A DNA stretch of 32,000 bases from Promethearchaeia archaeon (lineage in GTDB: Archaea; Asgardarchaeota; Lokiarchaeia; Sigyniarchaeales; SOKP01): positions 9,466 to 41,465 of the forward strand of contig JAWOFX010000174.1 in the NCBI GenBank assembly GCA_046497275.1, given 5' to 3'. Below are positions 9,285-12,547 of the stretch, piece after piece. The notes under the pieces are model-generated. The model was given only the letters and a program-made list of their open reading frames with translations, was not told the origin of the DNA and searched no databases. The position numbers were made by a program, and so were the translations under genes. How positions within the stretch are numbered: the first letter of the stretch is position 1; each line of letters begins with the position of its first letter.

Positions 9285-9578
9285 TCAATCTAAAAACATT
9301 TCTTCTGCTTTTTTTTTCCTTAAACCTGTCTGGGAAAATAATTCCTTGAAATAATAATTGCCATCTTGGATTACGACGGGTGTGTTCACAATACATTCAT
9401 CCTCATCGCAGAAGGTCTTCAAAAAATTTTTGTCTTGAAGAAGTTGGTTCACAAATTTCTCTTCATTAATGTCTTCTTCTACATACTTCACATCATTTTC
9501 TTTAAGCCATTCTTTTAACTCTGCGCATCTATGGCAATCTTCTTTTGTTATTATTATAGGAAGCTTCATCTCAGTCAT
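9285..9578 (-). CDS. Glutaredoxin/NrdH-like protein
   Basis: CHRC active site, KEWLKENDVKYVEEDI, cis-Pro motif NTPVV. GAGGT SD-like sequence upstream. Confidence 0.8.
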   Translation of the reverse strand: MTEMKLPIIITKEDCHRCAELKEWLKENDVKYVEEDINEEKFVNQLLQDKNFLKTFCDEDECIVNTPVVIQDGNYYFKELFSQTGLRKKKAEEMFLD

Positions 9579-10294: not shown

Positions 10295-11362
10295 TTAAAT
10301 GATTTTTCTTACAATCCATCCTAATGCTTTCATCATTTTTTCATGATTATTGGATAAGTTTACAGGAAAATATTCGATGGAGATATTGCATTTTTTAGTT
10401 TTTTCGAGATCAAATAATTTATCTAATTCTTCTTCAGAAACCTCTTCATGGTCGTTTTTTTTGTTCCCAATGATGAGTATTGGGGTTCTATTATCCAACT
10501 TAATATTGCATAATCGATTAGTAATAAATTTAAATTTCCCCCTTGCATCAAGAAAAGATTGTTTATGTGATGCATTAAAGATTAATATAAAACCTTGAGC
10601 CTTATTTATACATCTATTTTTTTTGTTGCATTGTTCACAGTTAAATTGTTTATCAATGCAATCTTCCATTACGATTTCCATGTTATCAATTACCACATTA
10701 AAAATTTTTGTTGGAAGATCGAGGTTATCTTGTTTTTGAATTTGAATTGATTTAAGATTATTGATAAATGCACTTTTACCAGCATTTTCAGCACCAAAAA
10801 TAAAAATCTTCTTAGTTTCTTCAATATTTTCCGTTTTAAAGGAAGCTTCTTTTGTACTTAATCTGCTAAAATAAGAATCATACAGATCAAAAAATTCCTT
10901 TTGAAACTCATTGCTTTCTAATGATATCTTATTTTGTAATGGGTATTTATTATTATTTTTATTTAAAACATCCGAAAAATCTCTTAATTCCTTCAATTTA
11001 ACAGCATATTCTTCTAAAATAGGAGTTTTTGTCTCTAAATATTTAAACACATCTGTTATTTCATTTTTAAAATATTCTGCTCTAATCATATAGGTAATCA
11101 TCAGCAATAATCTTCCCCCTCGCGCATTTTCATTTTCTATATAGAAAATATGGTTGACAGTTTGATAATTTCTAAAAGCAAAAATAAAAGTACCTTCTTC
11201 ATCAGTGATATCTAAAATCCTTCCTAAATCGGGATGATCAAATTCTTTTGATAATTCCTCATTACAATAAAATATAGTTGGTCCTATGATTGTATCAAAA
11301 TATGAAATGCAGAGAAATTCCTCTTGTGCCATAATTATTATATAATTGGAAGGATAAAGCAA
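10295..11362 (-). CDS. Fusion of an N-terminal uDENN/longin-like (folliculin/SMCR8-like) domain and a degenerate small GTPase domain; probable start is ATG at 11332
   Basis: N-terminus: LCISYFDTIIGPTIFYC and HIFYIENENARGG. C-terminus: G1 GAENAGKS, G2 PT, AQGFILIFNAS..SF, PILIIGNKKND; no DxxG. Confidence 0.75.
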   Translation of the reverse strand: MLYPSNYIIIMAQEEFLCISYFDTIIGPTIFYCNEELSKEFDHPDLGRILDITDEEGTFIFAFRNYQTVNHIFYIENENARGGRLLLMITYMIRAEYFKNEITDVFKYLETKTPILEEYAVKLKELRDFSDVLNKNNNKYPLQNKISLESNEFQKEFFDLYDSYFSRLSTKEASFKTENIEETKKIFIFGAENAGKSAFINNLKSIQIQKQDNLDLPTKIFNVVIDNMEIVMEDCIDKQFNCEQCNKKNRCINKAQGFILIFNASHKQSFLDARGKFKFITNRLCNIKLDNRTPILIIGNKKNDHEEVSEEELDKLFDLEKTKKCNISIEYFPVNLSNNHEKMMKALGWIVRKII

Positions 11363-11470
11363 ATAATCTTCATTTTATATTTTAAAAGATTTTATTGACT
11401 TGGTTATTCATTTAAAATAATAATAAATTGCGGTATGAATATTTTATAAAGATTAAAATAATAAAATTGG

Positions 11471-11494
11471 GAAATCTTTTGATATCAAGATTTC
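11471..11494. promoter_or_regulatory. Near-perfect palindrome upstream of the glutaredoxin-FTR genes
   Basis: GAAATCTT-TT-GATATCAAGATTTC: 11-bp arms (GAAATCTTGAT / ATCAAGATTTC) interrupted by a 2-nt TT insertion. Confidence 0.4.
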
Positions 11495-11536
11495 TATATT
11501 TCATTAAAAAAATGATTTAATCGGTGAATAAAAAAT

Positions 11537-11854
11537 ATGGAGAAAATGGAAATTCCCGAGTATATTGAAAAAATAGCTAATAAAGTAGAAGGGAAAAATG
11601 ATTCGAAAGATATGATGGCTTTTACACTCTCTACATGTCAATGGTGTAAAAAATTTAAAAGATATATGAAGGATCGAGATGTTTCCTTTAAATATGTAGA
11701 TGTGGACCAAATAGATCCAAGTGAAAAAGCACAAATATTAACTTTCTTACGTAATAATTTTGATGAACGAGTTTCCTACCCATACTTAATTTGTGATGGA
11801 AATGTGGTGGTGGGATATAATCCGAATAAATATGATGAATTATTAAAGGACTAA
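11537..11854 (+). CDS. Glutaredoxin-like protein (probable FTR partner)
   Basis: LSTCQWCKK active site, VSYPYLIC (cis-Pro), VVVGYNP. GGTGA SD upstream. Confidence 0.85.
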   Translation: MEKMEIPEYIEKIANKVEGKNDSKDMMAFTLSTCQWCKKFKRYMKDRDVSFKYVDVDQIDPSEKAQILTFLRNNFDERVSYPYLICDGNVVVGYNPNKYDELLKD

Positions 11855-11866
11855 TGGTGGTTTAAT

Positions 11867-12247
11867 TTGAGTTTTAATTTAGAGAGTAAGGAAGGAATGA
11901 GAGAATATTGTGATAAGATTTGTGAAATGAATGATTGGATTTTACAAAAAGATAAAGAAACTTTAGATGATTTAATTGATGGACTAGTTGAAAATAAGAA
12001 AAAATATGGATACCAATCGTGCCCTTGCCGTTTTGCATGTGGGAAAAGAGAGTTAGACAGAGATTTAATTTGTCCCTGTGTTTATGCTAAACCAGATATA
12101 GAAGAATATGGGACATGTTACTGTAATCTCTATCTTAGTCCGGATTTTTACGAAACTCATGAAGAGGATTTCCTACAGATTCCAGAGCGTCGACCTGTAG
12201 AAAAGGAAAATGCTGTTTTAGAATACATGAATGAACAAATCCAATGA
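11867..12247 (+). CDS. ftrC: Ferredoxin:thioredoxin reductase catalytic subunit-like protein (TTG start)
   Basis: CPCR, ICPC and GTCYCNLY motifs in FTR-catalytic spacing; IPERR near the C-terminus; GGTGG SD upstream. Confidence 0.88.
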   Translation: MSFNLESKEGMREYCDKICEMNDWILQKDKETLDDLIDGLVENKKKYGYQSCPCRFACGKRELDRDLICPCVYAKPDIEEYGTCYCNLYLSPDFYETHEEDFLQIPERRPVEKENAVLEYMNEQIQ

Positions 12248-12388: not shown

Positions 12389-12547
12389 ATGTCAAGAGAA
12401 GATTTAACGGACGAAGAAATAGAGGAAATGCTTGAGAAAGATTTAAAAGCAAATGAAGCGAAACGTGATAACTGTGGAGTTGCAATCCCCCCTAATCGAG
12501 AAATTGGAATTCAAAGAGATCAAGTAAAACTCAAGAAAAAAGATTAA
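12389..12547 (+). CDS. Small 52-aa protein (below the ORF-track cutoff)
   Basis: ATG 12389 to TAA 12547: MSREDLTDEEIEEMLEKDLKANEAKRDNCGVAIPPNREIGIQRDQVKLKKKD. Purine-rich coding-like composition, TATA-like TTTATATA about 25-30 nt upstream, T-rich tract downstream. Confidence 0.65.
   Translation: MSREDLTDEEIEEMLEKDLKANEAKRDNCGVAIPPNREIGIQRDQVKLKKKD

Follow-up and report, generated by a model that had tools for sequence, protein, structure and literature searches.

A longin and Arf-like G-domain gene

The stretch of DNA analysed here (the window, 32,000 nt of contig JAWOFX010000174.1 from a Promethearchaeia archaeon) carries a minus-strand gene, P0001, that encodes an N-terminal longin domain fused to a C-terminal Arf-like G domain. 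A four-cysteine (Cys4) segment of the G domain stands where switch II would be. P0001 forms part of a thiol-redox island and is divergent from a pair of genes encoding a glutaredoxin-like protein (Grx) and a protein resembling the catalytic subunit of ferredoxin:thioredoxin reductase (FTR). Fusions of a longin to an Arf-like domain are already known in Lokiarchaeum (PMC4917890) and MK-D1 (PMC10933270).

The open reading frame (ORF) of P0001 spans 10295-11362 if counted from a TTG at 11362. Translation more likely starts at an ATG at 11332, as the nearest full-length homologues have MAQEEF at their N-terminus. Residues are numbered here from this ATG; those given in an earlier description of the DNA, made from its letters without database searches (the sequence-only reading), were counted from the TTG and are higher by 10.

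The Pfam Arf model (PF00025) matches residues 170-343 (E = 6e-8, 32.8 bits, cutoff 22.3), and was found in all 45 family members scanned. Sequence matches of P0001 in the PDB are to Rap, Ral, Ras and Sar1, and its AlphaFold2 (AF2) model is laid out as an N-terminal domain, helical linkers and then the G domain. More than 280 homologues of about 345 amino acids (aa) were found. At E <= 1e-30, the family is present in 20 of the 25 genomes of the source's GTDB family, and in none of 126 genomes from other parts of the phylum. A typical member, together with a full Asgard redox island, is also carried by a contig labelled Candidatus Nanopelagicaceae bacterium (L016, DATKTW010000151.1), which is probably mis-binned or mislabelled.

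Four cysteines at the position of switch II

The Cys4 segment reads MEDCIDKQFNCEQCNKKNRCINKAQG in the translated protein, with the spacing C225-x6-C232-x2-C235-x5-C241 (C1 to C4). Their codons are at 10658-60 (C225), 10637-39 (C232), 10628-30 (C235) and 10610-12 (C241). When aligned with canonical relatives, the Asp of the G3 motif DxxG falls on D224, the first x on C225, the Gly on D227 and the catalytic Gln on K228, placing C1 directly after the Walker-B Asp. Alignment with Rap2A likewise sets the Cys loop at switch II. The Asp-to-Gly stretch before beta4 is 22 residues long, against 19 in the canonical relatives. A large insertion is thereby ruled out: with an excess of only about 3 residues over a canonical switch II, the segment represents a replacement of switch II. 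It contains only one CxxC pair (C232-x2-C235) plus two single cysteines, and a Pfam scan of the Cys loop alone returned no family at E up to 10.

The sequence-only reading had reported four cysteines with this spacing and span at switch II of a GTPase domain, and both the translation and the two alignments bear this out. It had also reported that DxxG was replaced, which is correct for the Gly and the Gln, both lost; the Asp is kept as D224.

At the protein's own background Cys frequency, four cysteines would fall within a given 17-residue window with P ~5e-5 (~0.015 over the whole protein), and a pure chance origin of the segment is ruled out by its conservation, as seen in the family counts and the tree that follow.

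Conservation and history of the cysteines

Cysteine patterns were compared among 135 homologues. All four cysteines (CCCC) are present in 53, while 49 have C1 and C4 with an acidic loop between them (C..C), and 23 have C2 and C4 with Phe at C3 (.C.C); in a few paralogues the whole segment is deleted. The 6-2-5 spacing is found in 52 of the 53 CCCC members, which have a mean pairwise identity of 49%, and the four cysteines are invariant in alignments A2 and A3.

A maximum likelihood tree of 92 rows was reconstructed with the Cys-loop columns removed, and rooted on the deletion-type paralogues. The CCCC paralogue P0125 branches first, then L043 (also CCCC), followed by a split between a 15-row CCCC clade (support 96/89), to which the protein of the window belongs, and a 70-row derived clade (100/94) made up of a C..C clade (100/99) and a.C.C clade (100/99). 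By parsimony, Cys4 is the ancestral state, and C3 was lost once, after which one clade also lost C2 and the other C1. This leaves exactly two cysteines in each derived clade, C4 always among them. Judged from these sequences, the Cys4 site is selected where it is present and dispensable for the family, because most rows lack two of the cysteines, with the protein otherwise conserved. The sequence-only reading had proposed Cys conservation across homologues as a check on its claim; the spacing and the ancestral state agree with it, and the proteins with only two of the four cysteines, which make up approximately 80% of the genome collection's species-level orthologues, do not.

The patterns do not mark paralogues within one genome, a possibility ruled out by the single strong orthologue found in each of the six genomes checked. 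The C..C and.C.C types are lineage variants, though extra paralogues exist in some islands.

Motifs kept and lost in the G domain

When the G domain was modelled alone with a Cys4-only alignment, AF2 gave a mean pLDDT of 87.7 and a pTM of 0.86. The top Foldseek matches of the domain are Asgard ArfR, Sar1 and Arl (TM 0.5-0.63, probability 1.0). Motif conservation was counted over 125 classified members (53 CCCC, 49 C..C, 23.C.C), and the values for the motifs that are kept are given in Table 1. At position 208, the switch-I Thr of P0001, the C..C clade has Ser or Asn, and the.C.C clade has Ser or Thr.

Other motifs are lost. The G3 Gly is found in 0 of the 125 members, and the catalytic Gln that follows it in 0-9%. 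The G4 Asp occupies its canonical position in 0-27% and lies one residue later in 34-94%, and G5 is absent, with PVNLS or PINIL where canonical relatives have TSA[KL]. Some family members have a degenerate P-loop, for example GNPSSVKNT.

Judging by these motifs, P0001 cannot act as a textbook GTPase switch, because it is without the gamma-phosphate-sensing Gly, the catalytic Gln and a normal NKxD. Nucleotide is probably still bound, given the conserved P-loop, Thr208, Asp224 and N290-K291. The kept nucleotide-site residues and the Arg of the longin reach ~80-100% across the clades, compared with an overall identity of 40-50%, and these nucleotide-site residues look selected. The sequence-only reading had noted the retained G1 (residues 180-187) and G2 Thr (T208), both of which are present, and had proposed a pseudo-GTPase. 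The loss of the G3 Gly and Gln, the G4 Asp and G5 agrees with that term, but the conserved P-loop, Thr208, Asp224, N290-K291 and longin Arg do not.

Where Ras-like GTPases have the antiparallel beta2 (interswitch) strand, both AF2 models place a helix, at residues 206-216 (10685-10717; pLDDT ~85-90 in the model of the domain alone). This may be a real remodelling or an artefact of the models.

Table 1. Features of P0001 and of its surroundings in the window. Percentages are ranges over the cysteine-pattern classes described in the text.
Feature	Coordinates	Strand	Basis or conservation
Longin and Arf-like G-domain gene (P0001)	10295..11332	-	345 aa; translation
N-terminal longin, FLCN/SMCR8/NPRL2 type (residues 1-125)	10958..11332	-	AF2 and Foldseek
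GP motif G17-P18 of the longin, beta1-beta2 loop	11279..11284	-	98-100% in all three clades
Arg71, candidate arginine finger (ARG motif)	11120..11122	-	96-100% per clade; invariant in alignment A1
Arf-like G domain (residues 171-345)	10298..10822	-	AF2, Foldseek
G1/P-loop GAENAGKS (G180-S187)	10772..10795	-	G180 100%, K186 98-100%, S/T187 75-100%
Switch-I Thr208 (G2), in DLPTK	10709..10711	-	Thr in 49/53 Cys4 members
Walker-B Asp224, kept D of DxxG	10661..10663	-	Aligns with D of YDxxGQ; Asp/Glu 87-100%
Cys4 segment replacing switch II	10610..10660	-	Spacing, tree, AF2 pLDDT 77-86
Degenerate G4, N290-K291-K-N-D294 for NKxD	10451..10465	-	N290 96-100%, K291 79-100%
Divergent intergenic region, 204 bp	11333..11536	.	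Two conserved TATA-like elements, CTTTATAAAATAT and CTTTTAAAATATAAAAT
Glutaredoxin-like gene (CQWC), divergent neighbour	11537..11854	+	Orthologues called PF00462
FTR catalytic-subunit-like gene (CPC...CPC...CYC)	11867..12247	+	Orthologues called PF02943 FeThRed_B
Acidic 52-aa ORF, downstream of the FTR gene; single conserved Cys in D-x-C-G	12389..12547	+	ORF and comparison
Second glutaredoxin-like gene (CHRC), downstream in the island	9285..9578	-	In most Grx-FTR-linked loci

The longin domain

AF2 predicts the order beta-beta-alpha-beta-beta-beta-alpha for the N-terminal domain, and its Foldseek matches include FLCN (6ulg_L) and GATOR1 chains. A GP motif and an Arg finger have been defined for the longins of GTPase-activating proteins (GAPs) and for Asgard longins (PMC12290439). 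In P0001 the corresponding G17-P18 and R71-G72 are both nearly invariant among homologues, and the domain has all three marks of a GAP longin of the FLCN/SMCR8/NPRL2 type: the predicted longin fold, the GP motif and a candidate arginine finger.

The thiol-redox island

The neighbourhoods of 80 genome loci were scored by tblastn with the window's own neighbour proteins. The divergent pair of Grx and FTR catalytic-subunit (FTRB) genes lies upstream in 13 of 14 CCCC loci, in the one SCCC locus, in 24 of the 25 C..C loci with enough flank, and in none of the 38.C.C loci, whose genomes still carry FTRB elsewhere. The single C..C exception (L049) has the Grx gene at the contig end. For the C1-bearing clades together this amounts to 38 of 40 adequately flanked loci, so the divergent pair that the sequence-only reading had pointed out is both present and conserved; its further suggestion, that the pair could control the protein, is conjectural. 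The family is robustly linked to the redox island. That adjacency follows Cys4 is ruled out by the C..C clade, which has kept the pair beside it, and the Cys-less paralogues of the same island also speak against it.

Two cysteines outside the loop, C23 (11264-11266) and C315 (10388-10390), are kept in 72-100% of members in the Grx-FTR-linked clades and in 0-17% of the.C.C clade. The latter has lost C1, C3, C23 and C315, so these four cysteines have gone together with the Grx-FTR adjacency.

Several other genes recur in the island at variable distances: a CCG pair, the second Grx, a flavin mononucleotide (FMN) reductase, HTH_10, a 150-aa HEAT protein and the 52-aa ORF. A gene of 51-52 aa is called at the same site as the last of these in L001, L002, L004 and L097, the copy in L004 being a clear homologue. 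In most relatives the HEAT-repeat gene, of ~150 aa, stands between the Grx and G-domain genes (L002:5356-5805, L004:5375-5833, L097:8614-9060). It is missing in the window and the nearest relatives, where the intergenic gap is ~200-290 bp.

The two TATA-like elements of the divergent intergenic region recur in the closest relatives (L005, L006 and L007). A shared operator was also sought in this region, and only the two TATA-like boxes were seen. The second element lies ~40-55 nt upstream of the ATG at 11332, a position that favours this codon over the TTG at 11362.

Paralogues and distant relatives

Up to three family paralogues are found in some Lokiarchaeial redox islands (L095:5001-6011, L097:5986-6990, L097:4266-5306). 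They are of two types, one in which the Cys loop is wholly deleted and the P-loop intact, and the P0125 type, which has Cys4. A more distant longin/G-domain group (P0186, P0199, P0200, P0206, P0217, P0239; L100:769-1659) keeps the GP and Arg motifs, has a destroyed P-loop and carries C-x7-C-x4-C-P-x-C at the switch II position. One distant member, from a metagenome-assembled genome labelled Hodarchaeota, is 1.7 kb from another Grx-FTRB pair and adjoins genes for a rubrerythrin, VIT1 and a flavodiiron protein. A search of 151 Asgard genomes with P0200 gave nothing at E <= 1e-15, and a profile of the distant group (A4) mainly re-found the main family and canonical relatives in Asgard genomes.

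Possible roles of the Cys4 loop

The reading that we favour, and to which we give about an even chance, is that switch II has given way to a metal site of four cysteines, pinned to the Walker-B Asp, in a non-canonical G domain that binds nucleotide and acts within a thiol-redox island. The motif, its place relative to the G motifs, its conservation, the polarity of the tree and the synteny are direct observations. We infer metal binding by the cysteines, coupling to the nucleotide site and a redox role. The four-Cys loop would bind either Zn2+ or an Fe-S cluster. With C1 after D224 and C4 six residues before beta4, the loop would be pinned at both ends and so connected to the Mg/gamma-phosphate site. 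The G domain would still bind nucleotide, and the invariant Arg of the folliculin-type longin fused to it would be needed for any hydrolysis. The protein, which is single-copy in its island of Grx, FTR catalytic subunit, CCG proteins and FMN reductase, would then probably report or respond to redox or metal state. A bolder form of this proposal is that an Fe-S cluster or redox-active Cys4, bonded to the Walker-B Asp, replaces switch II, that redox or metal state gates the G domain, either in place of GTP hydrolysis or alongside it, and that the cis-fused folliculin-longin/G-domain protein is a signalling module partnered with the ferredoxin-dependent Grx-FTR; this we hold to be rather unlikely.

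Several observations weigh against a metal site with a redox role. Two of the four cysteines are missing from 70 of the 85 main-type rows of the tree, in proteins that are otherwise conserved, and paralogues with no Cys loop at all reside in the same island. A lone CxxC pair is unusual for Zn knuckles, which pair two CxxC (or CPxC) half-sites. The match of the loop to the Fe-S loop of MutY is not significant (E = 2.6), and the Pfam model of the EndoIII Fe-S loop (PF10576) gave no match. The correlation between adjacency and C1 is about one evolutionary event, and since the family is confined to one GTDB family, the gene order could be inherited and not selected.

The metal could be a [4Fe-4S] cluster specifically, in which case a cubane wired to the Walker-B Asp would make the G domain oxygen- or redox-sensitive, with the longin/G-domain module as the readout of the cluster state, by analogy with the nitrogenase Fe protein (NifH) and the cluster loop of EndoIII and MutY. 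The spacing C-x6-C-x2-C-x5-C is exactly that of the EndoIII/MutY motif (PMC11138216). A 35-column profile of the loop, compared with all PDB sequences, gave the cluster loop of E. coli MutY as its sole in-register match with four cysteines, and the host is an anaerobe-type Asgard archaeon with an island rich in Fe-S proteins (FTRc, CCG, Fer4). However, that match lacks significance, the spacing of cysteines alone cannot separate Zn from Fe-S, and the different spacing of the distant Cys4 group, with its CPxC knuckle, looks more Zn-like. We regard a cubane at this site as doubtful.

The cysteines might instead form a metal-free thiol switch, in which C1-C4 disulfides (and C2-C3) reversibly lock and release the switch II loop and are re-reduced by the ferredoxin-dependent Grx-FTR; a disulfide switch was among the options named in the sequence-only reading. 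This would fit the presence of C1 and C4 in every Grx-FTR-linked clade, the joint loss of C1, C3, C23 and C315 in the clade outside the island, the exactly two cysteines that remain in each derived clade and the conserved divergent arrangement of the Grx-FTR pair. Cysteine loss and loss of adjacency are a single event on the tree, however, and the Cys-less paralogues have remained in the island. Four cysteines at a fixed 6-2-5 spacing look more like a metal site than like two disulfides, and since Grx-FTR proteins are general disulfide reductases, their adjacency need not mean a specific substrate. We consider a disulfide switch improbable.

Equally improbable is a structural Zn knuckle in a true pseudo-GTPase, with no binding or hydrolysis of nucleotide, a loop that stabilises a scaffold, and redox neighbours that reflect inherited gene order: the loss of the G3 Gly, the Gln, the G4 Asp and G5, the degenerate P-loops of some members, the Cys4 at this site in a distant group without a P-loop, the loss of Cys4 in most lineages that keep the gene and the narrow taxonomic range all point that way, but a G domain without nucleotide does not readily account for the conserved P-loop Gly and Lys, Thr208, Asp224, N290-K291 and longin Arg, and in each derived clade the residual Cys pair stays conserved.

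The longin-fused small GTPases found in Asgard archaea attract study as forerunners of Rag/Arf regulation in eukaryotes, and we know of no longin-fused Asgard GTPase of such degenerate form that has been characterised biochemically. If a metal or cluster is bound beside the nucleotide site, P0001 would be, to our knowledge, the first known protein of the Ras-superfamily fold with a metal or redox switch II. In the prokaryotes most closely related to eukaryotes, a folliculin-type longin/GTPase module would then be tied to the sensing of thiol redox state. Should the loop be no more than a structural Zn knuckle of a paralogue in decay, it would be a modest curiosity of one archaeal family.

Comparison with known systems

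The nearest known proteins in architecture are the longin-fused ArfL-type small GTPases of Asgard archaea (Klinger et al. 2016, as cited in PMC4917890; PMC10933270 for architectures). They share with P0001 the longin and C-terminal Arf-like domains and 24-30% identity over the full length, and both are confined to Asgard archaea. Canonical ArfL-type members have GLDxAGKT, PT, YDxxGQ...RxxW, NKxD and SA, whereas in the P0001 family the Cys4 loop stands at switch II, and G5, the Asp of G4 and the Gly and Gln of G3 are gone. A literature search for a cysteine- or metal-bearing switch II in Asgard GTPases found nothing relevant. The longin-Arf architecture is thus known, and the exchange of switch II for Cys4 and its redox-island context appear to be undescribed.

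The N-terminal domain shares its conserved GP motif and Arg finger with the longins of FLCN, SMCR8 and NPRL2 and their Asgard look-alikes (PMC12290439). It differs from FLCN/SMCR8/NPRL2 in being fused in cis to a degenerate G domain and in having no DENN domain, and its GAP function is only putative. The Grx-FTR pair resembles ferredoxin:thioredoxin reductase systems in its CPC...CPC...C[HY]C motif and PF02943 assignment, with a CxxC Grx adjacent in one operon; no description of its partnership with a longin/G-domain protein was found in the literature.

The [4Fe-4S] loop of EndoIII and MutY has the identical Cys spacing, and MutY aligns in register with all four cysteines. Unlike these enzymes, P0001 has no HhH-GPD domain and no basic DNA-binding residues between C1 and C2, and its similarity to them is not significant.

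In NifH, Cys132 and Asp125 lie in switch II, downstream of the Walker-B Asp. The protein combines a Walker A nucleotide site with a cluster ligated by Cys97 and Cys132 (PMC9571451), and Asp125 is reported to take part in signalling between nucleotide and cluster (Wolle et al. 1992, as cited in PMC9571451). NifH-type NTPases, which also include Nbp35/ApbC, HypB and Get3, place a metal or Fe-S site beside the nucleotide switch, and their likeness to P0001 is functional only. They are SIMIBI dimers with a deviant Walker A and two cysteines per subunit that bridge the dimer, whereas P0001 has a TRAFAC/Arf-like fold with four cysteines in one 17-residue loop, and is not a member of this group. The nearest analogy in function is NifH, a P-loop NTPase whose nucleotide site is coupled to an Fe-S cluster.

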